Shown here one piece after another: positions 48 to 12,520 of a stretch of DNA of 14,070 nucleotides. Position 1 is the first letter of the stretch. Each line of letters begins with the position of its first letter. The translations under genes were made by a program, and so were the position numbers. Origin of the DNA: a virus. Taxonomy: Duplodnaviria; Heunggongvirae; Uroviricota; Caudoviricetes. Below the pieces are notes generated by a model. That model searched no databases. It had not been told where the DNA came from and saw only the letters and a program-made list of their open reading frames with translations. The stretch lies in IMG/VR virus record IMGVR_UViG_2648501165_000006. One strand, given 5' to 3'.

Positions 48-842
48 TTGGCATCAACGCAGAGTTCAAAAGAGTACAAAAATGATCGCAGCAAGGCGAT
101 GAATTCTGCTGTCAGCAATATGGCGCAGTGGTTCCGTTGGGATCCGTCTGCGGATGACCAGACGCCGGAAGCAGCTAGATTCCGTAATGACTATCAGACG
201 CTGTATGACATTAACTACCGCGTTGCTGGTGGTAACGCTGACGTAGCGAAGCAAATGACCAACCAGCAGATAGCCCGCACCTGGAGTATCAGCGAGGTTA
301 ACGGAGAAGCGCAGTTTATGAAATATGCACCGGAGGCGCTTTATCAATATGGGCCGTCAGGCTGGCAGGCGGCGCAGTGGAAAGCTGAAAAAGAACGGCT
401 GATGTACGGTGAGCGCAAAGAGATTATAACAACCAGCCCGACGTTGCTTGGGATCACGTCAGGTAATGCTCCTGTAGTTGAGACAAAAACCCCTGAGAGT
501 CGTATTAATGGAGAATTATTCATAACCCCTGACGTGTTAACACCCCGTAATGGTGATTACGCCATTATGGTAAGAACTAAGGATGAAAATGGCATCGATC
601 GGGTCCAGCCGTTTTATAACAAACATGGGCGTCCTATGCGTTGGGAACCATCACTAGAAGATTGGGAACCCTATAAGAAAATGCAGCAGGAACGGGAGCA
701 GTACGAGCAGGAAGAAATTATGCGTGGACAGGCTATACGAAACTTCAAAGACAAGCATCGCGCTCTGGATGAGCAGTATCAGCGCCTGCATAACGAACGT
801 ATGGACAAATTTAAAGATTACTTTTCGTGGGGATCTAAATAA
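48..842 (+). CDS. Phage virion or ejection-associated protein, function unknown; 5' end possibly beyond the window
   Basis: The reading frame is open back to position 3 with no in-frame stop, and the first in-frame start is TTG at 48. The stop TAA (840-842) overlaps the ATG of the next gene (842-844), indicating translational coupling. The C-terminus is charged and coiled-coil-like. Confidence 0.5.
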   Translation: MASTQSSKEYKNDRSKAMNSAVSNMAQWFRWDPSADDQTPEAARFRNDYQTLYDINYRVAGGNADVAKQMTNQQIARTWSISEVNGEAQFMKYAPEALYQYGPSGWQAAQWKAEKERLMYGERKEIITTSPTLLGITSGNAPVVETKTPESRINGELFITPDVLTPRNGDYAIMVRTKDENGIDRVQPFYNKHGRPMRWEPSLEDWEPYKKMQQEREQYEQEEIMRGQAIRNFKDKHRALDEQYQRLHNERMDKFKDYFSWGSK

Positions 843-3800
843 TGCCAGTTTATGCACAAGCTGAAGATCTTAATAACGGACTGATCCCGTCAGGTAACGT
901 TTTGCCGGAACAAACTGGGTTTGATGTTGCCCTTCCGGAAGGGGCTAATCCTGAGCCATTGCCACCTGAGCCTTCCGTATGGGGGGCTGCAATGCGACAG
1001 AACAATATTCTGTCTGGTTTTTTCCGCCCAGCCAGACAGTTTGAACCGGTCGAGGGTTATAACCCATATGCTGATAAAAATGAGTTGCACGGTTATGAAT
1101 ACTGGGGGGCGAAATTTGCAGATTCCCGATCGCCAGAGGAAACGGCGTGGATTAAGCAGCAGATAGATGATGAAAATGAAGACAGACGTTTATTGTCTGA
1201 TGCTGGCGTAGTTGGAACCCTTGCCAGTATTGCTGCGGGAATGGATCCGGTTACTGTTGCGTCAATGTTTATTCCCGGTGCTCAAGGAGGGGCACTGGCG
1301 CGTATTGGCTCACAGATTGCGATTGGTGCTGCCGGTACAGCATTAAGCGAGGTTGTACTGAATAATCAGCAAATAACACGCTCATGGGGTGAAAGTGCCG
1401 CTCACGTTGCAGCGGGTGCGATGATGAGCGGCGTGTTTGCCAGTGCTGGTGTTGCGCTTTCGCCATCCGTCCGGGCTGCAGCCACACGTGAGGTTGCTGA
1501 TGCTCTTGATAATATGAGCATTACATCAGCGACTGACAGGGCTGCCGCTTCGCTTTCCGATGGTGGTAGTGTTGGTGCTATGAAAATTGATACAGCGGCT
1601 CTGGATGATTTAACCCCTGTTTCCGGTGGGTGGGTTGGAAAGGCTGCATGGAAAGCAGGGAGCTATCTTACTCCTTTGACAAGGTTAATGGAGTCTCCGT
1701 CCAAGACGGTGCGAAAAACAGCGCTGGAGTTAGCCGAAAATAATTTCACCCTTAAAGGAAATGAAAGGGGGATTGAAACACCGGTAGCTGTAGAAACCCG
1801 TACACGTGGATGGCAGCGTGAAGAAGCTGCTGTTGTTGTCGGAAATAAACAGGCATACGCAAAGTATAAAGCTGATGGTGGTGACATGAGTTTTGATTCA
1901 TTTCGTCAGCAGGTTGGGAATGCTATGCGAAGCGGTGATGTGCATGCTAATCCTGTTGTTCAGGAAACGGCGCAGGCGATGCGAACTGTATTAAATCGGG
2001 TGAAAGTTGAAATGCAAAAGCTTGGTTTATTGCCGCCAGATGAAGAACTGAAAGCATTAGGCCAGGCAAGCTATTTCCCACGCATATATAAAGTTGGAAA
2101 AATAATCAGTGAACGCGATAAATTTCGACGTATTTTGGTTGACTGGTGGTCGAGAGGAAATAAAACACTGGATCCTGAGGATGCTGAAATTGCAGCGGAT
2201 ATCGTAATTAATAAAATTACTGGTGCTAAGGTTCCACAGGATTTTGTCAGCGTATTTTCTGTAAAAGCCGCAGGTAGTACGAAAGAAAGAACATTAAATG
2301 TTTCTGATAGTCTTATCAGGGATTATCTTGAAAGTGATGTGAATTACGTGCTGCAACGTCATATCCGTGAAGCGGCAGCAGAAATTGAGTTGACGAGAAC
2401 ATTTGGCAAACGAACTATGACTGAGCGTCTGCAATTAATTGAGGACGAATATGACAGTCTGTTACGGGAAGTGCCTGAAAAAATAAAGGCGAAATATGAC
2501 GAAAGTGTGGCAAATCTGAAAGCACGTTATGAGAGCAATGGTGAAGTTGTTCCTCAGGGTAAACTCGATTCATTAATGCGAAAGTACGAAAAGGAATTAC
2601 GGAAAGAACAGTCCAGACTTTCAAAATCAAGAGCAAATGATCTCAGAGACATAACAGCATTACGCGATCGTCTTGTTGGTACATATGGTATGCCTGATGA
2701 TCCGTCTTCGTTTTTTGTTCGTGCTGGCGCTTTTCTGCGGGATGTGAACTTCACGACCAAACTCGGTGGAATGACAGTATCAGCTATTCCAGATCTGGCC
2801 AGAGGGGTTATGGTTAATGGTTTCCGTAACACCATGAAAGGCTATGCTTCTCAGATATCCCAATCACCGGCATTTAAGGCCAGCAAAGAAGAGATGTTGA
2901 AGATGGGGATTGGATTGGAAGCTGTACTACATTCACGTTCTCGTGCAATTGGTGATCTTGTTGACAGTTCTTCCAGGACAACAGCAGTCGAAGCAGGAAT
3001 GGAGCGAATTACTGATGCCTTCGGCAAGCTGACACTCATGGATCGATTTAATGACATAAACAAATCCATGAACGGAATGCTCACGTCAGACGGTATTTTG
3101 TCTGGTGCGTTTTCTGCACGTCGCATGGCAAAACTCGGTATCAACGACAATATGGCTGCGCGTATTCGCAGTGAGTTCGAGAAACATGGTGAGGTAATTG
3201 ATGGATGGCACATTGGTAACTTTGATAAATGGGACGATCAGTACGTTGCCGGAGTATTCCAGTCAGCGGTTCTGAAAGACGTTAATAACACTATCATCAC
3301 CCCCGGTATTGGTGACACACCTTTATGGGCGAGTACTCCAATGGGGCGAACGATATTTCAGTTTAAATCATTCACAACGGCTTCATACAACCGTGCGCTA
3401 CTTGGTGGGTTACAGGAAGGAACTGCGCAATTTTATTATGGCACTGTATTTCAGATTGCTCTTGGCTCACTGGTCTATGCGCTAAAAGAAGCATCGAAAG
3501 GGAAAAATGTTGACTGGTCACCAGAGAAGCTGGTGCTTGAGGGTATAGATAGATCCGGTATTCTTGGGCCATTGATGGAATATAACAACATGGCTGAAAA
3601 GGCTACTGGTGGTGCTGTTGGGCTGGGGGCTTTATTTGGCACTGGCACACAGTCTAGGTATGCCAGTCGTGGATTCGTAGGATCTCTATTCGGACCGTCA
3701 TTTGGTCTTGCGGATAGCATCATTGATGTGACCGCAGGAGTGTTGAATGGTGATGCCGGTGATCGTATTGTGCATAATGTCCGAACCCTGATACCAGGCA

Positions 3801-3856
3801 ATAACCTGTTCTGGATTGCGCCACTAATAAACCAGGTGGATCCGGTGATGCGGTGA
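842..3856 (+). CDS. Large (1004 aa) phage internal virion / DNA-ejection (core) protein candidate
   Basis: Long ORF with a Gly/Ala-rich hydrophobic stretch (GAQGGALARIGSQIAIGAAGTALSEV...AAGAMMSGVFASAGVAL) and an extended charged coiled-coil region. It sits upstream of the immunity region and tailspike, as ejection proteins do in P22-like and epsilon15-like podoviruses. Function is inferred from size, composition and position only. Confidence 0.55.
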   Translation: MPVYAQAEDLNNGLIPSGNVLPEQTGFDVALPEGANPEPLPPEPSVWGAAMRQNNILSGFFRPARQFEPVEGYNPYADKNELHGYEYWGAKFADSRSPEETAWIKQQIDDENEDRRLLSDAGVVGTLASIAAGMDPVTVASMFIPGAQGGALARIGSQIAIGAAGTALSEVVLNNQQITRSWGESAAHVAAGAMMSGVFASAGVALSPSVRAAATREVADALDNMSITSATDRAAASLSDGGSVGAMKIDTAALDDLTPVSGGWVGKAAWKAGSYLTPLTRLMESPSKTVRKTALELAENNFTLKGNERGIETPVAVETRTRGWQREEAAVVVGNKQAYAKYKADGGDMSFDSFRQQVGNAMRSGDVHANPVVQETAQAMRTVLNRVKVEMQKLGLLPPDEELKALGQASYFPRIYKVGKIISERDKFRRILVDWWSRGNKTLDPEDAEIAADIVINKITGAKVPQDFVSVFSVKAAGSTKERTLNVSDSLIRDYLESDVNYVLQRHIREAAAEIELTRTFGKRTMTERLQLIEDEYDSLLREVPEKIKAKYDESVANLKARYESNGEVVPQGKLDSLMRKYEKELRKEQSRLSKSRANDLRDITALRDRLVGTYGMPDDPSSFFVRAGAFLRDVNFTTKLGGMTVSAIPDLARGVMVNGFRNTMKGYASQISQSPAFKASKEEMLKMGIGLEAVLHSRSRAIGDLVDSSSRTTAVEAGMERITDAFGKLTLMDRFNDINKSMNGMLTSDGILSGAFSARRMAKLGINDNMAARIRSEFEKHGEVIDGWHIGNFDKWDDQYVAGVFQSAVLKDVNNTIITPGIGDTPLWASTPMGRTIFQFKSFTTASYNRALLGGLQEGTAQFYYGTVFQIALGSLVYALKEASKGKNVDWSPEKLVLEGIDRSGILGPLMEYNNMAEKATGGAVGLGALFGTGTQSRYASRGFVGSLFGPSFGLADSIIDVTAGVLNGDAGDRIVHNVRTLIPGNNLFWIAPLINQVDPVMR

Positions 3857-3867
3857 GTTAAACGCCT

Positions 3868-4458
3868 TTAGCATGATTCAGGGGAAACCCCAATATTAAA
3901 TATGAGTGACTCTCCTGAATCAGCATAATAATGTAATATTATTGACTTACGTTGTTTTCTTGCTTCGTAGAATAAACGCTCTTGCGGCGATAATTTGTGA
4001 AAACTGCCGGATGCACAATATATGTTTTTTAACTTTTCGCTGGTTGCTTTTATTGTATCTTCTGAGATGTATTTTAGGTATTTATCCGTATAGATGTTGC
4101 TACTATAAGAAATTAATGTTTTGCTGTTGTTGTGATGTATTGTATTTTTATCGTTGAAGTCTGTATTTTTATTTACTGTCATTAGGTTTTTAATGATTAC
4201 ATGTAATGCAATAGTCTCCCCATCATCAATTCCATATTTGATGTCATAGTCAGTATATTTATTTGTTATACCGCTTCCTGATAGCGGCACTATGTACTCT
4301 GAGAAAAATGAGTTTGCCGCGTGACCATCAAGAGCAATAGCAGTTTTTTTGTGGTAAAAATAAAACAATATTGAGAGAGTCAAAATAATAGCGACGCCTA
4401 ATGCAACCTTTAATATAGATATGGTTTTCAAAATATCGCTCCTTGTTGTAACATACAT
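3868..4458 (-). CDS. Membrane-anchored hypothetical protein in an AT-rich moron (candidate superinfection-exclusion or defence effector)
   Basis: Visibly AT-rich ORF. It has one long N-terminal hydrophobic segment (ILKVALGVAIILTLSILFYFY) followed by a ~165-aa soluble domain with two Cys. The start is ambiguous: TTG at 4479 (ORF track), ATG at 4458, or TTG at 4431 preceded by AGGAG at 7-nt spacing. It lies immediately downstream of the RHH regulator gene on the same strand. Confidence 0.5.
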   Translation of the reverse strand: MYVTTRSDILKTISILKVALGVAIILTLSILFYFYHKKTAIALDGHAANSFFSEYIVPLSGSGITNKYTDYDIKYGIDDGETIALHVIIKNLMTVNKNTDFNDKNTIHHNNSKTLISYSSNIYTDKYLKYISEDTIKATSEKLKNIYCASGSFHKLSPQERLFYEARKQRKSIILHYYADSGESLIFNIGVSPESC

Positions 4459-4521
4459 CAGTAATGTGGCGTTTTTCAATTGTATTAAAGACGTGTAATA
4501 TGTACACGCCTTTTGTTCTTC

Positions 4522-4953
4522 CTATTCAGGTATTTCAATTCCAAAACCATCTGCATCCCATGAGTTTTCACAGATGATGTAACCTAGTTCATTGAGCTTA
4601 TTAAATGTTTTTTCAAAGATGATCTGGTAATCATTATCTGCAAGTGATTCCAGTTCAAGGTCATTAAGGTTTATATAAAAACTTGTATGTCCAAGTGTTA
4701 TTTTCTTATTGATTTCATTAAAAGTTCTTTTGAAAATAATATTTGATATTTCATGCCGTGCATTGTTTGCAATAATTTTTGCTTCATAAGCAGAAATTAC
4801 GTCATCTTCATGAATATCTTTCAGAAAGCTGGTGTCAAGACGTTGTACTATTTCAGCGTTCATTGAGCGCTTATTGGCTTTTGCAGAAATTTCTATTTTT
4901 TCTTTTACTTCAACGGGAAGTCTGATCCTTAGTTGTGGATCTTCTCTGCTCAT
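4522..4953 (-). CDS. Arc/Mnt-family ribbon-helix-helix transcriptional regulator with a ~90-aa C-terminal extension
   Basis: The N-terminus MSREDPQLRIRLPVEVKEKIEISAKANKRSMNAEIVQRL matches the Mnt/Arc RHH pattern (basic beta-strand, then helices, with the ...RSMN.E... motif). The likely start is ATG at 4953 with a GGTGA ribosome-binding site; the ORF-track start at 4983 is TTG. The gene is AT-rich. Confidence 0.6.
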   Translation of the reverse strand: MSREDPQLRIRLPVEVKEKIEISAKANKRSMNAEIVQRLDTSFLKDIHEDDVISAYEAKIIANNARHEISNIIFKRTFNEINKKITLGHTSFYINLNDLELESLADNDYQIIFEKTFNKLNELGYIICENSWDADGFGIEIPE

Positions 4954-4998
4954 GTTCTTCACCAAATATTGAGTTACTTGCAATGATTGAAGTATGCC

Positions 4999-5059
4999 TC
5001 ACCGTGTGCTTGACATCAATGACGCACGGTGTGACAATTGTTTTGCCCCACGGTGGGGC
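4999..5059. promoter_or_regulatory. Divergent immI-like control region: sigma70-like promoter (TTGACA 5010-5015, 17-nt spacer, GACAAT 5033-5038) overlapped by repeated CACCGTG / CACGGTG operator-like half-sites
   Basis: CACCGTG at 5000-5006 and its reverse complement CACGGTG at 5025-5031 flank the -35 element. A third copy sits inside the near-palindrome GCCCCACGGTGGGGC at 5045-5059, just upstream of the AAGGAG ribosome-binding site (5061-5066) of the Arc-like gene. Confidence 0.4.
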
Positions 5060-5073
5060 TAAGGAGATATGAA

Positions 5074-5241
5074 ATGCAAAAAGCAAAAGAGATGTGTCAA
5101 CGACGAGTTCGTTTTCCGGACGATGTGAAGTTAGCTATTGAAAGAAATGGCGAAAAAGAATGCCGAAAGTTCAATACAGAGATTATCTATCAGCTGAGGA
5201 AAGTGTATGGACTCACTGGTGAGAAGAATAGCGTGGCATAA
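5074..5241 (+). CDS. Arc-like small ribbon-helix-helix repressor (55 aa)
   Basis: ATG at 5074 is preceded by AAGGAG at 7-nt spacing. The product MQKAKEMCQRRVRFPDDVKLAIERNGEKECRKFNTEIIYQLRKVYG has the size and RHH pattern of phage P22 Arc. The ORF-track start at 5038 lacks a ribosome-binding site. Confidence 0.6.
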   Translation: MQKAKEMCQRRVRFPDDVKLAIERNGEKECRKFNTEIIYQLRKVYGLTGEKNSVA

Positions 5242-5247
5242 AACAGC

Positions 5248-5280
5248 GAAGCCCAACGGTGGCCAGACCGTCAGGGCTTC
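5248..5280 (-). terminator. Hairpin between the Arc-like and antirepressor genes, terminator-like on the minus strand (candidate sar-type antisense RNA terminator)
   Basis: 7-bp stem GAAGCCC / GGGCTTC with an internally structured loop. On the minus strand the hairpin is followed by a T-rich tract (TGTTTTAT); on the plus strand it is not. Confidence 0.35.
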
Positions 5281-5313
5281 AGTATCGTAAAACTACGTAT
5301 AGGAATTAACGAC

Positions 5314-6140
5314 ATGACGAGTATAGCAACAGCGCTATCTACTATCAACGTGCCATTCCACGGCGCAGAACTTTATGTTGTCAATCACAACGGAGAACCG
5401 TACACCCCAATGAAACCTATCGTTGAAGGCATGGGTATGGATTGGGCTTCACAGTTTACGAAAATGAAGCAGCGGTTTAAAACCTGCATTGTGAAAATCA
5501 CAATGCAGCTTCCTGGGGATGAACAGCGCCGTGAGATTATTTGTTTGGCACTTCGCAAACTTGCTGGCTGGTTGCAAACCATCAGCCCTAACAAAGTCCG
5601 CCCTGAAATCCGCGACAAGGTAATCCAGTATCAGGAAGAGTGTGACGATGTTCTCTACGAGTACTGGACTAAAGGCCATGTGGTTAACCCACGCAAAGCT
5701 AAAAAGGCGTTGCCGGGTAAAATAACCACTGAACAGCAGGAAGCCATTAAACAACTCGTCATGAGTCGCGGTCAGTCTCTGCCAAAAGAAAAACAGGCTA
5801 AGGCGATGATCACCATGTGGTCGTCACTGAAATCTCATTTTGGCTGTTCGTACAAAGAAATTGATGAAGATCAATTCGCCGAAGCGTTGTCTCTTGTTGC
5901 TCGGGTTCCGCTTGAAGGGGAGCATCTCCCTGCTGGATCTGCATCAGAGAATGATGAAGTGGCAGTCAAGATGTTAGATGCGCTTCGTGAGGCAATTAAA
6001 ACACAGACAAAATGTTATGGTTATCCGCTGAAGCCCGGCTACCGCAGTCTGATTCATTCGCCGTCTGGTGTTCTCGGCCTGACGGAGAACNNNNNNNNNN
6101 CCACGCGGAGTACATCAACGACAAGGCAGGGTTCTTCTGA
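5314..6140 (+). CDS. Antirepressor (Ant-like N-terminal domain plus KilA-C-like C-terminal domain), interrupted by an assembly gap
   Basis: The N-terminus MTSIATALSTINVPFHGAELYVVNHNGEPYTPMKPIVEGMGMDWASQF is antirepressor-like. After the N run, the frame ...HAEYINDKAGFF-stop (ending at 6138-6140) matches the C-terminus of the minus-strand antirepressor 7124..7810. The ORF-track extension to 6315 is a frame artefact of the N10 placeholder. Confidence 0.6.
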
Positions 6141-6164
6141 CAGAACGGCGGCACAGGGATGTGC
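6028..6164 (+). repeat. Inverted repeat copy A (antirepressor C-terminal module plus ~25 bp of 3' UTR), gapped
   Basis: 6028-6090 and 6101-6164 are near-identical to the reverse complement of 7101..7359, for example CTGAAGCCCGGCTACCGCAG...GGCCTGACGGAGAAC and CACGCGGAGTACATCAACGACAAGGC. Confidence 0.8.
6091..6100. other. Assembly gap (10 N placeholder) inside a repeated antirepressor C-terminal module
   Basis: A literal run of ten n characters. By comparison with the paralogous copy at 7101..7359, the true missing length is probably ~120-130 bp. Confidence 0.95.
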
Positions 6165-6190
6165 AAAACGGAACTATCGTGACATGTCAC

Positions 6191-6215
6191 AGGCCGCTTT
6201 CGCGGCCTTGTTTTT
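6191..6215 (+). terminator. Rho-independent terminator downstream of the antirepressor gene
   Basis: Stem AGGCCGC (6191-6197), loop TTTC, stem GCGGCCT (6202-6208), then TGTTTTT. Confidence 0.6.
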
Positions 6216-6255
6216 AACGAATGCCACCGCCGCCCGGGCGGGAATCCGCAGACAC

Positions 6256-6277
6256 AAAAAAGCCCGCAACGCGGGCT
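6256..6277 (-). terminator. Rho-independent terminator immediately after the 181-aa minus-strand gene
   Basis: On the minus strand: stem AGCCCGC, loop GTT, stem GCGGGCT, followed by T6 (the plus-strand A-run at 6256-6261). The hairpin overlaps the stop codon at 6277-6279. Confidence 0.6.
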
Positions 6278-6822
6278 TATTCCTTCCATTTATCAGAAAA
6301 AAGCTCTTCTTCTAAAGGCATTGGTTCTGTTTTTGTTTTCTCAAAGAATTGATAACTGATAGTGATTGCTTCCTCTTTAAACTCTTCTTGCTCAGTTATG
6401 TTGTGGGCATCTGCGTCAACAAAAAACATAACCAGCGCATCACGATTGTGATTTACCGAATAAACTAAAAAGCAATCACTTGTTGGTATGCATTTTACTT
6501 GCACAGACGCTATATTTTTCCATGCATCCCAAGATGATTTTTTACCAGTGTGTTTTTTATCACTATCTTCTGGAATATAGTCTTGGTTATCGACATGAGT
6601 ATGCCTGACATTTAGTTTAAGCATTTCTGTCGGACGAGCAAATGCAGCATCTTTACCAAGAGATGGATGGTATCCCGTTTTCCAATACTGGGTAAAGGCA
6701 TCAGATACTTTCTTCAGCTCAAGATCAGATGCACAAAGGGCCGAGAAATTTTGCGTATGCAATACTCGACCCTTATATCTGACAATTTGATTTTTATCAT
6801 TCTGCGACGCAGACGAACTCAT
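6277..6822 (-). CDS. Hypothetical 181-aa protein, candidate toxin or abortive-infection effector (possible YafO-like motifs)
   Basis: ATG at 6822 is preceded by AAGGA. The motifs ...EMLKLNVRHTHV... and ...CFLVYSVNHNRDALVMFFVDA... resemble, from memory, conserved blocks of YafO-family mRNA-interferase toxins; this is unverified. The gene is flanked by its own terminator and lies between convergent antirepressor genes. Confidence 0.5.
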   Translation of the reverse strand: MSSSASQNDKNQIVRYKGRVLHTQNFSALCASDLELKKVSDAFTQYWKTGYHPSLGKDAAFARPTEMLKLNVRHTHVDNQDYIPEDSDKKHTGKKSSWDAWKNIASVQVKCIPTSDCFLVYSVNHNRDALVMFFVDADAHNITEQEEFKEEAITISYQFFEKTKTEPMPLEEELFSDKWKE

Positions 6823-6976
6823 AATTTTCCTTATTGTTACGAGAATCAAAGAAAGCTCGGGATACGCGACTTGCGTGATCTTTTGTCATAGTAACTTTTA
6901 CGTACTCTACGCTTCCATTGAAAGAACGTCTTGCGGCAGCTTGCGCTCTACGCATCTGCAATTTTTCGTTTCGCAT
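6797..6976 (-). CDS. Small 59-aa ORF upstream of and overlapping the 181-aa gene (candidate antitoxin or regulator)
   Basis: ATG at 6976 is preceded by GAGG at ~7-nt spacing. The N-terminus is Arg-rich (MRNEKLQMRRAQAAARR...). It overlaps the downstream gene start by 26 nt in a different frame. It is absent from the ORF track, which appears to omit ORFs of this size (shortest listed is 60 aa). Confidence 0.35.
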   Translation of the reverse strand: MRNEKLQMRRAQAAARRSFNGSVEYVKVTMTKDHASRVSRAFFDSRNNKENYEFVCVAE

Positions 6977-7100: not shown

Positions 7101-7359
7101 GCACATCCCTGTGCCGCCGCCCGTCAGAAGAACCCAGCCTTGTCGTTGATGTACTCCGCGTGAGTCTGGATATCACGCAGGCATTTGCTCACACCGACGA
7201 TGTAGCAGAACATGGTGGTCAGCTCCGCCGCCGCGCCCGATACATCGTGCCCGTCGTCCTGTAACTGGTTAAGCAGATTCATCAGCAGTGAGTTCTCCGT
7301 CAGGCCGAGAACACCAGACGGAGAATGAATCAGGCTGCGGTAGCCGGGCTTCAGTGGGG
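7101..7359 (-). repeat. Inverted repeat copy B (C-terminal module of the Bro-N antirepressor plus 3' UTR)
   Basis: The reverse complement matches copy A with a few mismatches. The repeat ends at GCACATCCCTGTGCCGCC (7101-7118). Confidence 0.8.
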
Positions 7360-7810
7360 CACTGTAGGTTTTGTTCTCTATCTTCATTGCCTGCATCACT
7401 GCTGATGCTGTGGCGTTGGCTACCTGGTCGGCAACCATCTTTATGCGTTCTTCCTGCGGGAGCGAGTTTTTAATGTAACTTCCGGTGCGGCGGATCTGAG
7501 GAAGAACCTCACCTGTAACCCATTTACGAAAGCGGTAGGGGATAGTGCCTGGTGTCACCGCATCGCGGCAGCGGAGGATCAGTGTGTAGAGGCCTGACTC
7601 GTTGATAATATTGGTTTCGCCTTGACGGCCTAAGTTAAATTTAGCCCTTTCATCATCATCAAGAGATTTTATTGACATAGTGGGGTTTGTCAGTTGAAGA
7701 GCTTTAATAACGTCTTTGGCAACAAACCAAGGATTTCCATCAATAACAATGGCTCGAATGGTTGCTTCTGATTCAAAATGAAAAACAGATGGGGTTACGT
7801 TAGCAGTCAT
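7124..7810 (-). CDS. Antirepressor with Bro-N-type N-terminal domain and KilA-C-like C-terminal domain
   Basis: From ATG at 7810 (ribosome-binding site AAGGTG) the N-terminus reads MTANVTPSVFHFESEATIRAIVIDGNPWFVAKDVIKALQL, the Bro-N signature. The C-terminal ~85 aa are near-identical to the gapped antirepressor at 5314..6140. The ORF-track extension to 7963 (MCKAHLFYGG...) is judged non-coding. Confidence 0.65.
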   Translation of the reverse strand: MTANVTPSVFHFESEATIRAIVIDGNPWFVAKDVIKALQLTNPTMSIKSLDDDERAKFNLGRQGETNIINESGLYTLILRCRDAVTPGTIPYRFRKWVTGEVLPQIRRTGSYIKNSLPQEERIKMVADQVANATASAVMQAMKIENKTYSAPLKPGYRSLIHSPSGVLGLTENSLLMNLLNQLQDDGHDVSGAAAELTTMFCYIVGVSKCLRDIQTHAEYINDKAGFF

Positions 7811-7963
7811 AGTGATCACCTTTGTAGTTAGGTTAATCACCACTACCGACGCCAATCGGTTGGTGGTGAACTGTGCAGGGTTGGCGTAACCGGCTACAAA
7901 GGACCCGGCGCACCTTTCGGTGCCCCCACACAGCCCACCATAGAATAGGTGCGCTTTACACAT

Positions 7964-7983
7964 AAAAAAAACCGCTTATGCGG
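7964..7983 (-). terminator. Weak terminator-like element (short GC stem followed by T8 on the minus strand)
   Basis: Plus strand reads AAAAAAAA then CCGC-TTAT-GCGG. On the minus strand the 4-bp GC stem is followed by eight T. The stem is short, so the call is weak. Confidence 0.25.
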
Positions 7984-8123
7984 CATATGTGCCTCTGTAG
8001 TAACTCGGGACGCCAATCCCGGCACTGGATTTTGCCAGTGCCCGATTACTATGGCACAAGAGGAGTGCGATGTAAATTTACCTCAAAGGTAAATATAAGC
8101 ACTCCACTTGGTAATTGCAAACC

Positions 8124-8381
8124 TTATCTGGTTTGCTTTCGTAATTGTTCGGCACAATAGTCGAGATGTGTTTGCAGATCCTGCATAGACATCTGTGAGC
8201 TGGTGACGTAGTTAATCAGTGCAGTCAGTTCGGCAAGTGGGCCATCGACATTAAATCCATCCTTATCGAGATCCCGGAGTAATTTCATCAAGTGCGATCC
8301 CTCCACCAGTGATCTGACGCCTCCCGGCGTGTGAATCCTTTCGGTAAATCCCTCTTCCAGTGGATAGTGATACTGCTGCAT
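8124..8381 (-). CDS. Stand-alone KilA-C-like (antirepressor C-terminal) domain protein, ~85 aa
   Basis: ATG at 8381 is preceded by GGAG. The sequence ...HTPGGVRSLVEGSHLMKLLRDLDKDGFNVDGPLAELTALINYVTSSQMSMQDLQTHLDY aligns by eye with the C-terminal modules of both antirepressors (...HSPSGVLGLTENSLLMNLLNQLQDDGHDVSGAAAELTTMFCYIVGVSKCLRDIQTHAEY). Confidence 0.55.
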   Translation of the reverse strand: MQQYHYPLEEGFTERIHTPGGVRSLVEGSHLMKLLRDLDKDGFNVDGPLAELTALINYVTSSQMSMQDLQTHLDYCAEQLRKQTR

Positions 8382-8576
8382 CTTATCTTCTCCATGCAAT
8401 AACTGTATAAATATACAGTAGCAAATAATTTGTTTGCTATCCAGCACGTTTTGCGAATCACCTGAAAGGTAATATCTGTTCGTATTTATGGGTTATCTAT
8501 CCATATATGGTTTTTAAGGTAATAGAATAACCGGATATGCGGCGCAACGGGTGCTGCGACTATCTGGAGATTTAAC

Positions 8577-10571
8577 ATGACGGTCTCAACCGAAGTTGAC
8601 CACAACGAATATACAGGTAACGGTGTTACAACTACGTTCCCTTATACCTTTAGGATTTTCCAGAAATCTGATCTGGTGGTGCAGGTGATTGACCTTGACG
8701 AGAATATCACTGTGCTGGCTCTTGATACTGATTACGCAGTCACTGGTGCGGGAGGCTATAGAGGCGGTAATATAATACTGTCGAAGGCATTGGCCAACGG
8801 TTATCAGATCTCTATATCACGAGAGCTCCCGGTTACTCAGGAAACAGATCTGCGTAATCAGGGTAAATTCTTTGCAGAGGTGCATGAGGATGCGTTTGAT
8901 AAGCTAACGATGCTGATTCAACAATGTCGTAGCTTGTTTCGTCTTGCACTTTGCAAGCCATCAAGTATTGCAAACTGGTACGACGCTTTAAATAACAGGA
9001 TTAGAAATCTTAAAGATCCAGAAAGCCCTCAGGATGCAGTAACTTTAAGTTATCTTGAAGGGTATATAGAAGGTGGTGATAGTACTTTGCGTCCAGATAT
9101 TACAAGAACTGGAGCTGTAGGGAATAATATACAGCAAGCCATAAACTTATCTATAGCCGGTCAAACTGTAATTACGATGAAAGATGATGAAATTGTATCT
9201 TCATTGTTAAATGAATATGGTGTTGAAATTGAGCAACGCAGGGGGCGTGTATTTAATACAGAAGGTGTTCAACTAACAACGTATTCTGACCCTCGTTCCC
9301 GTTTTGTAACTGGTGACCAATATCTTAATTATGTTATTAGCAAGATGATAAAAGCAGATGGCGTGGATAAATCACAGAAAACATATATTTTGTGGTCTGG
9401 TGACTCCACGATTGTTGGTGTTAACTCTGAATTATGGCCACCAGCAACTATTGCTGATTTTTATGCAAAGAGGTATGGAATTATTGATGTAAAAAATACA
9501 TCGTTAGGTCATTCAGGTAAAACTCTATACGAATGGGGTAATTGGTATATTGATCAGGAATGGTCTGTTTTTTCTGCTGCTGATTTGATTGTTTTACGAT
9601 GGGGAATTAACGATCCATATTATGGTTATACATTGGATCAAGTAAAAGACGCATTAGATAGAGGCCTTTCCAAGTTACGAAATAACAAATCAGTTTCCCA
9701 GCAATCAATTATTATCATGTCCCCAAACTCAACATCAGACACACCAAACGGACGTGATGAAAAATGGTATGAACAGTTAACAGCCGTACTTAGAGCCAAA
9801 GCAAAACAATATAAGTGTATGTTTTTTGATACTTACGGTATGTGGCAGGATTCGCGAGGATCTGCTGGTAACTGGCTTGATGACCCTTATGGCGATGGCA
9901 GGGGAATACACCCAAACTCAACATTTAGCGCACAGATACATAAATTATTATTTGAATATATTTATGGACCGTGTGCTGTTATAAATGGGAGTAGCAACCT
10001 TTTTTCTAACAATGGTTCTTCCATACAATTCATCAATAGCTCATATCCGCCAAATACTTTTCACATGGGGACTTCATGGTGGAGAACAAACCCTGATGAT
10101 GCTTCTTGGCCTCTTGATGGTGTTATTCAGGTTGATAGATTTGTTGACGGAATAGTAGTACAAAAAAATTATGGTTATTCTTCAGATAATGCTCGCGTTT
10201 GCTTAATGAGGATTGGAAGGATTAGTGAGAATACATGGAGTACATGGCGAGGTAATCAGTATGATATGAGTGGCATATTGCAAAATGGTTGGTCTGTAGG
10301 TGAGGCAAGAAGTGGAACATATCAGAAATCAGCCGAGGGCGTTGTTACTTTATCTGCTGTTTTAACAGGTGGAAATACATCTGTTGGCACGGTTATTATG
10401 GTATTGCCAGAAGGGTTTAGACCAAAGAATGATATTTCTTATATTCCATCAGGTACTGATTCATCGGTTGCCCTCATTAATATACTTTCAAACGGTAAAG
10501 TTACAATTCAGAGCTATCCGTCAGGAACTGTTCTTGTAATTAATACGACATTCCCTTCATTAGTTAATTAG
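8577..10571 (+). CDS. Tailspike / tail fibre protein with a conserved N-terminal particle-binding domain, a central SGNH/GDSL esterase module and a C-terminal beta-rich domain
   Basis: ATG at 8577 with a GGAG ribosome-binding site. The N-terminal ~120 aa (MTVSTEVDHNEYTGNGVTTTFPYTF...DLRNQGKFFAEVHEDAFDKLTMLIQQ) fit the podovirus tail-fibre adaptor pattern. SGNH blocks are present: GDS at codons 275-277 (nt 9399-9407), GIND (LRWGINDP), and DGRGIHP with the His at nt 9909-9911. The 3' two-thirds is visibly more AT-rich than the 5' end. Confidence 0.75.
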   Translation: MTVSTEVDHNEYTGNGVTTTFPYTFRIFQKSDLVVQVIDLDENITVLALDTDYAVTGAGGYRGGNIILSKALANGYQISISRELPVTQETDLRNQGKFFAEVHEDAFDKLTMLIQQCRSLFRLALCKPSSIANWYDALNNRIRNLKDPESPQDAVTLSYLEGYIEGGDSTLRPDITRTGAVGNNIQQAINLSIAGQTVITMKDDEIVSSLLNEYGVEIEQRRGRVFNTEGVQLTTYSDPRSRFVTGDQYLNYVISKMIKADGVDKSQKTYILWSGDSTIVGVNSELWPPATIADFYAKRYGIIDVKNTSLGHSGKTLYEWGNWYIDQEWSVFSAADLIVLRWGINDPYYGYTLDQVKDALDRGLSKLRNNKSVSQQSIIIMSPNSTSDTPNGRDEKWYEQLTAVLRAKAKQYKCMFFDTYGMWQDSRGSAGNWLDDPYGDGRGIHPNSTFSAQIHKLLFEYIYGPCAVINGSSNLFSNNGSSIQFINSSYPPNTFHMGTSWWRTNPDDASWPLDGVIQVDRFVDGIVVQKNYGYSSDNARVCLMRIGRISENTWSTWRGNQYDMSGILQNGWSVGEARSGTYQKSAEGVVTLSAVLTGGNTSVGTVIMVLPEGFRPKNDISYIPSGTDSSVALINILSNGKVTIQSYPSGTVLVINTTFPSLVN

Positions 10572-10605: not shown

Positions 10606-10722
10606 AAAAACACAAATGATGATTTTGTTGTTTACTTATAACATAATAATTCATATATGGTTTGGTTTTGATGGTGTTCTACCAGAAACTGGAGATTTGA
10701 TGAATGTTAAATGGTGGTTGAT

Positions 10723-11127
10723 ATGTCATTTCAAATAACTAATGATCATGTAAATCAGTATCTTACTGTTGGTTCTCTTGCTGCGGTTATTGGTGGGACT
10801 CCACCTGAAGTTGCTTTGGGCTCACTTGCCGGAGCTGTGATTTTTGTTACCTCTGCTATCGAGTATCCAATCCGTCGTCGTGTTCTTCTGTCAGTGCTCA
10901 GCTTTATTTGCGGCCTTCTCTTTTACAAACCAGCAGCATCAATTCTTATTGGCATAGCCAGCCTGATCCCTACCATCACACAGGACTCTTTTGAGAAAGG
11001 GATTGTTTTCTCTGCTGGCGCATTCGTGTCAGCAATTGTCGCTGTGCGTATTGGTATCTGGCTCTATCACCGTTCCGATAATCCACGCGAATTAATGCCG
11101 GGGAGAAAAGACGATGGTAACGCATGA
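10723..11127 (+). CDS. Holin-like membrane protein (about four predicted transmembrane segments)
   Basis: Hydrophobic segments (LTVGSLAAVIGG..., LAGAVIFVTSAI, VLLSVLSFICGLLFY, ILIGIASLIPTI, IVFSAGAFVSAIVAVRIGIWLY). It is the first gene of the lysis cassette. The start is either ATG at 10723 or at 10711. Confidence 0.5.
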   Translation: MSFQITNDHVNQYLTVGSLAAVIGGTPPEVALGSLAGAVIFVTSAIEYPIRRRVLLSVLSFICGLLFYKPAASILIGIASLIPTITQDSFEKGIVFSAGAFVSAIVAVRIGIWLYHRSDNPRELMPGRKDDGNA

Positions 11128-11422
11128 GCTTTTTTTACTTATCACCAATGCGGTTATTTGTACTGGCATAGCAATTCGCGTTGTCACTTTCCAGCGTAAC
11201 GGATCTCAACATCGAAGATGGGGTGGGTGGATTGCTTATTTCCTGATTGTTGCTGCTGCGAGTATTCCAGTTCGTGTCGTTTATGCAATCTGGTTACGCA
11301 CGCCAATGGCTGTGGATTTATCTGAGGTCATTATCAACGCTGTCATGCTTGCTGCGGTTCTTAAAACTCGCGGTAACGTCGTTCAGATTTTCAAAATAAC
11401 GAGGTCTAAATATGGAGATTAA
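11114..11422 (+). CDS. Second small membrane protein of the lysis cassette (holin or antiholin candidate)
   Basis: ATG at 11114 is preceded by GGGAGA. It overlaps the end of the upstream gene by 14 nt and the start of the endolysin gene by 11 nt. It has about three hydrophobic segments and a basic C-terminus. Confidence 0.5.
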
Positions 11423-12041
11423 ACAATTCCAGCGAGCTGCTGGTATTAGCGAGGCGCTGGCCGCTCGCTGGTTCTCGCATATAACTTCTGCGATGAAAGA
11501 GTTTGGTATCAGCAAACCAGAAGATCAGGCAATGTTTATTGCTCAGGTCGGGCATGAGTCTGGAGGCTTCACCCGGTTGCAGGAAAATTTCAACTACAGC
11601 GTAACCGGATTGGCTAACTTCGTTCAGGCTGGGCGTCTCACTCAGGGGCAGGCTAATGCACTTGGTCGCCGTGCTGGTGAACCACCATTGCCACTCGAGC
11701 GCCAGCGCGCGATCGCAAATCTGGTGTACAGCAAACGCATGGGGAACAATGCCCCTGGTGATGGCTGGAATTACCGTGGGCGCGGGCTTATCCAGATTAC
11801 CGGTTTGAATAACTATCGTGACTGTGGAAACGGTCTGAAAGTTGACCTGCTGGAGAATCCTGAACTGTTGGCGCAGGACGAATACGCGGCTCGTAGCGCG
11901 GCGTGGTTCTTCTCCAGCAAAGGTTGCATGAAGTATACCGGCGATATTGCACGTGTAACTCTGATTATCAATGGTGGCAGGAATGGCATCGACGACCGGC
12001 GCGCGCGGTACGTCACTGCCAGTAAGGTGCTGGCTGTATGA
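11412..12041 (+). CDS. Endolysin, glycoside hydrolase family 19 (chitinase-like lysozyme) type
   Basis: Motifs [12 protein letters not shown] and [15 protein letters not shown] are typical of GH19-type phage endolysins. From memory it closely resembles endolysins of epsilon15-like Salmonella phages such as SPN1S; this is unverified. GAGG ribosome-binding site, and the stop overlaps the Rz start (ATGA). Confidence 0.8.
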
Positions 12042-12520
12042 TCTGGGTATTCGTAAAAGCATACTGGAAACAGATGCTTATCGTGTTGATGCTTGCTGCT
12101 CTGTTCATCGTCGGAGTGGTTGCTTGGAATATACACGGCAGCCGCCAGTACGATGCCGGGTATGCGCAGGCGGAAGAAGACCGCAAAGACGAAGAAGACA
12201 AAGTTCGTCAGTACTACGAACAGGAGAAAGTGACCAATGAACGTGAAGCTCAGCAGAGGATCGACCAGGCGCGCAATGATGCTCTTGATGCTGCCGCTCG
12301 CGCTGGCCGGTTGCAGCAACAACTCTTTGCCATCCGTGAGCAGCTCAGGCAGTATAACGCCATTGTCGGCGCTGGGACGTCAGCCGCAGACACCGGAGTT
12401 TTGCTTGCCGACGTGCTCAGCAAATCTCTCGAGAGAAACAGACAACTGGCAGAGTATGCTGACCGGGCAGCCGAAGCCGGAAGAGTCTGCGAAAAACAGT
12501 ATGACACCCTGACCAGATAG
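12038..12520 (+). CDS. Rz: Rz-like inner-membrane spanin (i-spanin)
   Basis: N-terminal transmembrane segment ([18 protein letters not shown]) followed by a charged coiled-coil periplasmic domain. It lies directly after the endolysin gene and contains an embedded +1-frame lipoprotein gene. Confidence 0.75.
12237..12512 (+). CDS. Rz1: Rz1-like outer-membrane lipoprotein spanin (o-spanin), entirely embedded in Rz in the +1 frame
   Basis: AGGAG ribosome-binding site 9 nt upstream of ATG at 12237. The signal peptide has a basic n-region, a hydrophobic core and the lipobox LAGC. The mature part is Pro/Ser-rich, and the gene is nested in Rz as in lambdoid phages. Confidence 0.65.
   Translation: MNVKLSRGSTRRAMMLLMLPLALAGCSNNSLPSVSSSGSITPLSALGRQPQTPEFCLPTCSANLSRETDNWQSMLTGQPKPEESAKNSMTP

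Follow-up and report, generated by a model that had tools for sequence, protein, structure and literature searches.

In the window, the whole 14,070-nt stretch of viral DNA analysed here, the segment 3868-4953 is occupied by two minus-strand ORFs, genes A and B. They are two adjacent yet separable accessory units in the variable 'ant moron', which runs from the last ejection-protein gene to the tailspike gene. Gene A is very probably an mnt-equivalent; the arc-ant synteny, the operators and the sar RNA beside it mark it as part of a mobile immI-type module and not as the regulator of a private operon. Gene B probably encodes an independent, periplasm-facing membrane protein. The complete reading, in which A is the immI-type mnt-equivalent and B is a separate exclusion protein, we consider evenly balanced.

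This type of region (ant moron, immI, sie slot) is already known, and the region has otherwise been sequenced, and annotated as hypothetical, in a known type of phage. What is new is the occurrence of an immI-type module in a non-P22 podophage and in siphovirus tail operons, a putative Mnt-type repressor with a different, uncharacterised C-terminal domain and, in gene B, a member of a rare, uncharacterised family with a predicted pilotin-like periplasmic fold. A literature search by protein accessions and PHROG identifiers returned no paper that mentions protein A or B, and the TL-2011b papers are silent on both genes.

The interval between the internal-core and tailspike genes

The virion genes upstream of the two ORFs encode a T7 gp14-family core protein, a 905-aa SLT protein and a 1004-aa internal protein (842-3856), and the window is 99% identical to Escherichia phage TL-2011b across 3700-5320. 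Judged from its genes, the phage is an epsilon15/TL-2011b-type podophage, carried as an E. coli prophage, with virion genes that are not P22-type; a preliminary description of this DNA had drawn a parallel with P22-like phages, which does not extend to the epsilon15/TL-2011b-like virion genes. The interval from 3868 to ~8450, bounded by the last internal-core gene and the tailspike gene (8577-10571), corresponds in relative position to the variable 'ant moron' of P22-like phages (PMC2629481). The lysis genes are found at 10711-12520, away from gene B.

The computed GC content of 3868-4953 is 0.327, compared with a mean of 0.442 for the window. This is the minimum among all 1086-nt windows; equally low ones make up 0.4%, and every one of them overlaps 3868-4953. 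GC3 is 0.31 in gene B and 0.24 in gene A, with most neighbours at 0.38-0.56; since it is low in both genes, the AT bias is not merely an effect of amino-acid composition. The AT-rich accessory DNA of the preliminary description is thus confirmed, as the difference did not vanish on computation. Homologues of gene A and of gene B are also AT-richer than their surroundings in every host.

A moron, as defined by Juhala and Hendrix, differs in composition from its flanks, is missing from close relatives, has its own promoter and terminator, and is expressed from the repressed prophage. Genes A and B agree with this definition in composition (GC 0.327 vs 0.442) and in patchy presence, as 10 of the 46 E. 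coli prophages that share the same core-gene 3' end carry neither of them. Promoter-like and terminator-like sites are also present, the former no more often than shuffled sequence would give. In all 36 carrier E. coli genomes both genes are intact, single-copy and chromosomal (5,426 complete genomes screened). Over six alleles, pN/pS was 0-0.11 for gene A and 0.2-0.9 for gene B, the counts being small. Genes A and B are real and under purifying selection, gene B being the less constrained of the two. The features of the region are collected in Table 1.

Table 1. Features in and around the two accessory units, with positions in the window.
Feature	Position	Strand	Remarks
Gene B	3868-4431	-	187 aa; bitopic membrane protein with its anchor at residues 9-26; the alpha/beta domain, in which C139 and C187 are invariant, is probably periplasmic
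A-B spacer	4432-4521	-	90 nt; hairpin at 4492-4508 (11-bp stem, RNA fold); promoter-like sites at 4506-4479 and 4479-4450; SD AAGGAG
Gene A	4522-4953	-	143 aa, ATG at 4953; putative Mnt-type RHH repressor; DNA-binding domain at residues 2-46, followed by an alpha/beta domain of ~95 aa
Control region	4995-5059		three palindromic candidate operators centred at 5003, 5028 and 5052; core CAC(C/G)GTG; overlapping back-to-back promoter-like elements
Promoter-like element toward gene A	TTGATG 5019-5014, CATACT 4996-4991	-	17-nt spacer; consensus match, read by eye
Promoter-like element toward arc-ant	TTGACA 5010-5015, GACAAT 5033-5038	+	17-nt spacer; consensus match
Arc-like RHH gene	5074-5241	+	55 aa; divergent from gene A; PHROG Arc-like repressor matches at 2e-5
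sar antisense RNA	5245-5312	-	over the arc-ant junction; Rfam RF00262, 45.2 bits vs gathering score 43, E=4.4e-7
Antirepressor gene ant	5314-6090	+	P22_AR_N domain, Pfam PF10547, E=1.2e-44; broken by a 10-N assembly gap at 6091-6100

A probable Mnt-type repressor gene in an immI-type module

Residues 2-46 of the gene A product match Pfam Arc (PF03869) with E=1.1e-14 and 54.5 bits (cut-off 20.4), and searches of the protein in Pfam, NCBIfam and PADLOC gave no domain other than Arc. Among solved structures its closest relative is P22 Mnt (1mnt, E=3.5e-7), over about residues 3-45 (1mnt residues 2-44), and it matches phrog_1388 over its full length. The AF2 model of the protein (pLDDT 79) resembles Arc 1par in Foldseek with probability 0.99 and TM 0.70.

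We found 262 homologues of gene A, of 142-150 aa, across Enterobacterales. The aligned ones are 58-69% identical over their full length and have a near-invariant N-terminus, MSREDPQ(L/F)RIR(L/I)P; one protein cluster of the family was seen on 759 contigs, that from Y. pestis on 557. In all loci examined (Y. pestis lambda-like prophages, Enterobacter and Proteus siphovirus prophages, a Providencia contig and the present window) the family A gene is divergent from an Arc-like gene of 55-59 aa, after which come Bro-N or P22_AR_N antirepressor genes. The order of A, arc and antirepressor thus recurs in five genera (E. coli, Y. pestis, Enterobacter, Proteus and Providencia). Directly downstream of the family A gene, the Yersinia and Enterobacter loci continue with a convergent tail gene.

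An immI region of the P22 type is recognized by an mnt-type gene divergent from arc-ant, together with a sar antisense RNA over the arc-ant junction, and both are present in the window. A promoter-like site (5348-5320) and a terminator-like site (5269-5250) on the minus strand fit the predicted sar RNA. In TL-2011b, ant is 945 nt long.

The control region between gene A and arc has a comparable organization. As seen from a scan of the 14-kb window, the only three CACSGTG sites (5000-5006, 5025-5031 and 5049-5055) all fall within 56 bp. Each CAC(C/G)GTG site centres a palindrome (5045-5059 reads GCCCCACGGTGGGGC), and the centres are spaced 24-25 bp apart. The central candidate operator falls in the spacer and the -10 of the rightward promoter-like element, and the one at 5000-5006 falls in the spacer of the leftward TTGATG-17-CATACT element, which scores 8/12 against the consensus here and has CATAAT as its -10 in other genera. 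The operator/promoter core of ~60 nt is near-invariant in five genera, and the flanking leaders diverge. No LexA box was found in the A/arc control region; the sole perfect box in the window lies at 8403-8418.

By analogy with P22, the layout would follow the logic of Pant/Pmnt with Omnt/Oarc, where either RHH protein could occupy a given site. The RHH domain of gene A would bind the CAC(C/G)GTG palindromes that overlap the divergent promoters, and we infer that the candidate operators are occupied by the gene A product. In a lysogen, gene A would repress the arc-ant promoter as Mnt does, and the antirepressor would thus be kept off.

Similarity of gene A to 1mnt stops at residue 45. P22 Mnt is ~83 aa long and has a C-terminal coiled-coil tetramerisation domain. 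We therefore did not retain gene A as an orthologue of P22 Mnt, as in its 143 aa the coiled-coil tetramerisation domain is replaced by an unrelated alpha/beta domain. In the AF2 model (pLDDT ~85), residues 55-143 begin with a helix of 33 residues, after which come a strand, a second helix and more strands. The domain has no PDB relative by fold (Foldseek) or by sequence, and in isolation no Pfam match. It is kept across the whole family, whatever gene lies downstream. It would take the place of the Mnt coiled coil and provide oligomerisation for cooperative binding to the three sites 24-25 bp apart. An oligomerisation domain is the most likely interpretation, and it rests on the Mnt analogy because the domain has no structural relative.

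The preliminary description had seen in this product an Arc/Mnt RHH N-terminus, now supported by Pfam Arc and 1mnt alike, and a long extension as a possible sensor or effector. The extension is real and conserved across the family; nothing, however, suggests a sensor or effector role for it. The profile searches and Foldseek comparison proposed at that stage place the RHH part with Arc and Mnt and leave the C-terminal domain without a relative. Enterobacterales prophages commonly carry the family A module, which is apparently unstudied and probably influences prophage induction cross-talk.

Gene B, its genomic slot and its relation to gene A

The ORF of gene B spans 3868-4479, and its likely start is the TTG at 4431, which has AAGGAG 7 nt before it. 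PGAP and the annotation of TL-2011b start the gene at the same TTG, and so does the phrog_8033 profile with its 187 positions. The product has a single hydrophobic segment at residues 9-26 (Kyte-Doolittle peak 2.47), with ~160 residues beyond it. In a full HMMER scan of 1.84 billion representative proteins there were 17 matches, compared with 4 and 11 in word-indexed searches. Family members share 28-43% identity with the E. coli protein; where an organism is named it is Providencia or Proteus, and the other members are encoded on metagenomic or viral contigs. Their alignment has sixteen invariant columns, including C139 and C187, and every member has its cysteines 48-50 residues apart and a hydrophobic core of 18-23 residues, flanked on the N-terminal side by a stretch with a charge of +2 to +3 and on the C-terminal side by an acidic one. 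This pattern of charge and hydrophobicity points to an N-in, C-out topology with a periplasmic domain, which is probably stabilized by a C139-C187 disulfide. For the E. coli protein the topology is less clear than for the family, because HKK directly follows its anchor. Inspection of sequences across the family revealed no canonical lipobox.

Gene B had no match of note in Pfam, NCBIfam or PADLOC, and its isolated C-terminal domain had none in Pfam either. In PHROG its sole match was phrog_8033, and tblastn against 50,697 phage records returned TL-2011b only. A match to Thoeris ThsB/TIR (E=0.015) is not significant and was taken as noise.

In the AF2 model of B, built on a shallow alignment of 14 sequences, the elements follow in the order alpha-beta-beta-beta-alpha-alpha-beta-beta-short helix. 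The AspS/PA3611 fold is alpha1-beta1-beta2-beta3-alpha2-alpha3-beta4-beta5-alpha4 with a conserved alpha2-alpha4 disulfide, and at the level of the model B has this topology and the equivalent cysteine pair; in AspS, this disulfide ties alpha2 to alpha4 (PMC3542185). The modelled periplasmic domain is thus of a PA3611/AspS pilotin-like fold, the resemblance being at fold level only. Identity between B and AspS (YghG/GspS-beta) or PA3611 is 8-14%; hhalign of family B against E. coli YghG gave a probability of 0.7%, which is not significant, with the first cysteines aligned. A PDB profile search with B recovered neither 3npd nor 4ftf, and Foldseek of the model against the BFVD viral structures gave nothing significant. 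Unlike AspS, B lacks a lipobox; it has an inner-membrane anchor that looks uncleaved and one strand more at its N-terminus, and its phage-borne gene is linked to core-protein genes rather than to a T2SS. Relative to AspS/PA3611, the E. coli protein also has a disordered insert of its own at residues 87-102.

Wherever the context of a locus could be read, the B-family gene converges on the last internal-core gene, which encodes 937-1133 aa and lies 10-35 nt away, and this linkage holds down to 28% identity. The loci comprise three from Providencia, two from Proteus, four metagenomic ones, five from IMG/VR, six from E. coli, and TL-2011b. Some of the B-bearing phages have T7 gp14-family core genes. 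In the window the order is B, mnt-like gene, arc, sar, ant, with B convergent to the last ejection-protein gene; elsewhere the neighbours of B include a secreted protein of 175-180 aa, a lipoprotein and a multi-pass membrane protein, and in some Proteus loci the space from core gene to tailspike holds just B and one gene of ~90 aa. In the inspected genomes without B, the slot is taken by a 175-aa N-terminally anchored protein or by a 98-aa protein with two membrane segments. Two further points of the preliminary description are upheld here. The second product is a membrane protein with a single anchor and no known motif, and it occupies the sieA position, where sister prophages have other small membrane proteins.

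Our best guess, offered tentatively from the analogy with SieA and HK97 gp15, is that B is a superinfection-exclusion protein acting at the DNA-entry step. Anchored in the inner membrane with its N-terminus in and its C-terminus out, B would present a disulfide-stabilised periplasmic domain. This domain would bind the periplasm-exposed part of the trans-envelope channel that the ejected core proteins of incoming related podophages form, and the binding would block DNA entry, as SieA does in P22. The position of the gene, its orientation against the late operon, the envelope location of the product, the replacement in the slot in sister prophages and the faster protein evolution are consistent with such a role. 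The likeness to SieA-type exclusion, a block on related phages after adsorption from which they escape by mutations in their ejection proteins, is one of position and architecture. None of the homologues of B has a known function, and B has no sequence similarity to SieA, HK97 gp15 or any PADLOC model. A bolder version, which we regard as doubtful, makes B a new class of exclusion protein in which a pilotin-like domain tethered to the inner membrane captures a segment, exposed in the periplasm, of the core proteins ejected by epsilon15/T7-core-type podophages and prevents formation of the DNA channel, the gene being locked to the core gene that it polices, and makes the C-terminal domain of A a new oligomerisation or sensing domain of widespread Mnt-type repressors. 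If B is an exclusion protein, it would extend the SieA-type DNA-entry block to a different podophage lineage through an unrelated architecture. It would also provide a handle on the epsilon15/T7-type ejected core channel where it crosses the periplasm, and escape mutants should map the contact site.

It is also conceivable, though unlikely, that B is a lysogenic-conversion factor acting on a host envelope machine rather than on incoming phage. It might mimic a pilotin and bind the S-domain of a secretin, or some other partner in the periplasm, or it might modulate the O-antigen or surface structures. The modelled PA3611/AspS-like fold with its equivalent cysteine pair would suit such a role, an AspS-type pilotin (YghG) is present in E. 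coli, epsilon15-like phages are known serotype converters (PMC7380047), and B is AT-rich and on the strand opposite to the late genes. However, B differs from a pilotin in lacking a lipobox and in having an inner-membrane anchor, and shares no sequence homology with YghG. Moreover, B stays strictly linked to the ejection-protein gene both in hosts that have T2SS-beta and in those that lack it, which argues for a phage-related partner.

A dedicated defence system, in which A and B are a single moron operon whose RHH protein, with its extension as a sensor, controls the membrane effector, is distinctly improbable. The two genes are adjacent, in the same orientation and equally AT-rich, they occur together in all 36 E. 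coli genomes and in TL-2011b, and the U-tract at the intergenic hairpin is weak, so that read-through from the gene A promoter is plausible. Yet the two families are distributed independently, so that A and B do not make up a conserved unit. Prophages of Yersinia, Enterobacter, Proteus and Providencia carry family A but no B; conversely, family B is found without A in Providencia and Proteus prophages and on metagenomic and viral contigs, gene A being missing from the Morganellaceae and metagenomic B loci. Also against an operon are the 90-nt spacer with its 11-bp hairpin and promoter-like hexamers (such sites upstream of B are no more numerous than in shuffled sequence), and the operator motif CACSGTG, which has no copy near B in the 14-kb window. 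The layout of one metagenomic locus (L015) argues the same way, as a strong terminator stands before B there, followed by a TTGAAC-17-TACCAT motif (read by eye); in homologous loci, B is preceded by a terminator or a divergent gene. Furthermore, the candidate operators of A lie on the arc-ant promoter, A is always paired with arc and ant, and its extension is conserved family-wide regardless of the downstream gene. The control of B by the RHH protein, as first proposed, is thus not supported; the two genes are separable, and the evident target of A is the divergent arc-ant promoter. In P22, sieA lies downstream of mnt and has its own promoter (PMC10883804). As a separate, lineage-linked gene, B would probably likewise have its own promoter, with possible read-through from gene A, and we infer that it is expressed in the lysogen.

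That B serves the lytic cycle of the phage itself, for example by helping or regulating, from the periplasm, lysis or the function of the core proteins, is very unlikely. The gene is kept beside the core-protein gene over deep divergence, even in the minimal Proteus cassettes, which could reflect such a function; but it is transcribed against the late operon, and the lysis genes lie elsewhere (10711-12520). Core proteins, moreover, act before phage gene expression and are packaged in the cytoplasm, whereas the B domain is predicted to be periplasmic. B is also dispensable, because the 10 of 46 closely related E. coli prophages mentioned above do without it. A type II toxin-antitoxin pair of RHH antitoxin and membrane toxin, suggested by the upstream RHH gene and a weak FitA-like RHH match (8.8e-5, under the Pfam cut-off), is scarcely credible, as A and B are 90 nt apart and do not co-occur across lineages as a tight pair would, the B domain is predicted to be folded, disulfide-containing and extracytoplasmic and is not a known toxin fold, and A belongs to the mnt/arc/ant module.

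Comparison with known systems

HK97 gp15 is a small moron inner-membrane protein encoded beside DNA-delivery genes, which is expressed from the prophage and blocks genome entry in a way that depends on features of the incoming tail (PMC3594210). B is likewise small, moron-encoded, predicted to be in the inner membrane and adjacent to genes of the DNA-delivery apparatus. In contrast to B, gp15 is a YebO-family protein of a siphovirus with a target linked to the tape-measure protein, and the two have no similarity.

SieA is expressed from its own promoter, acts on the ejection-protein conduit and occurs in sequence types that are <30% identical (PMC10883804), a divergence that resembles the 28-43% identity within family B. 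SieA and B are alike in relative gene position, in orientation, in being membrane proteins and in size (162-164 vs 187 aa). In SieA, however, three membrane segments are predicted and a large periplasmic domain is missing, whereas B has one anchor and a folded domain of ~160 aa. Homology of B to SieA was considered and rejected, as B has no similarity to the three SieA types and one hydrophobic segment against three transmembrane ones.

The closest counterpart of the region as a whole is the P22 immunity I region (sieA-orf59a-mnt / arc-sar-ant). In both, a leftward mnt-type RHH gene is divergent from arc-ant. Both have overlapping promoters, palindromic operators and a sar antisense RNA, represented here by promoter-like sites and candidate operators, and both carry, downstream of mnt, a membrane-protein gene that converges on the gene of the last ejection protein. 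The block also resembles that of P22-like phages in lying between the ejection genes and the tailspike gene and in being variable among related phages (PMC2629481). Unlike P22, the host phage here has epsilon15/T7-core-type virion genes, the mnt-like protein has 143 aa and a predicted alpha/beta C-terminal domain in contrast to the coiled coil of Mnt, and the candidate operators are three in number and different in sequence. In a further departure from P22 immI, the module of family A is also found inside siphovirus tail operons.

Cargo at homologous loci and reach of the repressor family

In two Proteus loci (L024 and L025), the mnt/arc/ant module, in which a homologue of gene A (the Mnt-type repressor gene) diverges from an Arc-like gene and the antirepressor gene ant, is adjoined by an AIPR abortive-infection gene. 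In two IMG/VR contigs (L034 and L035), a lipoprotein gene, recognized by LPAM_1 and an LSGC lipobox, is divergent from the homologue of gene B, the membrane protein gene. The region therefore gathers envelope and defence cargo. In the window, a YafO-like toxin gene lies between both antirepressor modules and is AT-rich (GC 0.37).

Features of the variable stretch and of homologous loci
Feature	Location	Strand	Match or source
YafO-like toxin gene	6277-6849	-	Pfam 9e-6; phrog_1651
Bro-N gene	7124-7963		
C4 antisense RNA	7859-7945	-	Rfam RF01695, 79.5 bits
isrK	7965-8041	-	Rfam RF01394, 74.2 bits
c4 a1/b1 target	8002-8054	-	Rfam
AIPR abortive-infection gene	L024 and L025, 1358-3046		Proteus
Lipoprotein gene	L034 and L035, 3980-4366		IMG/VR contigs; LPAM_1, LSGC lipobox

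As Pseudomonas phage PfAC03 (OR801191.1, a 12.4-kb record) carries a relative of gene A at 3511-3888, with 40% identity over residues 1-125, family A extends past Enterobacterales.

Flanking structural genes

The product of the gene in the tailspike position, 8577-10571(+), has a T7 tail-fibre-like N-terminus, common to Proteus phage tailspikes, and a GDSL/SGNH esterase domain (PF13472, 7e-15). The T7-like N-terminus together with the esterase domain suggests a receptor-binding protein with a deacetylating function. At the other side, a 45-nt segment in the 3' end of the gene for the 1004-aa core protein (3806-3850) recurs with 100% identity in ~34 E. coli genomes, in DNA that carries no annotation; many of these genomes are ST131, and they are without the remainder of that gene. 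The matches may reflect a scar of recombination or what is left of a prophage.

Antirepressor genes and their control

The ant gene is broken by 10 N at 6091-6100 (flanks 5314-6315), and the C-terminus of the Bro-N protein is repeated on both sides, as YGYPLKPGYRSLIHSPSGVLGLTEN and HAEYINDKAGFF. Most probably the N run marks a gap left where the assembly collapsed a repeat, the 333-aa ORF listed there being an artefact.

A perfect LexA box (CTGTATAAATATACAG, 8403-8418) is found just upstream of a small gene, 8124-8381(-), whose product matches phrog_450 and has a likeness to the antirepressor C-terminus. This gene may encode a small antirepressor under SOS control, a third induction input.

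Directly upstream of the Bro-N gene is the cluster of Rfam RNAs (7859-8054(-)), comprising C4, isrK and the c4 a1/b1 target. Judged by these matches, the C4/isrK/Bro-N set is an antirepressor switch of the P1/P7 type, the second one within the same region.
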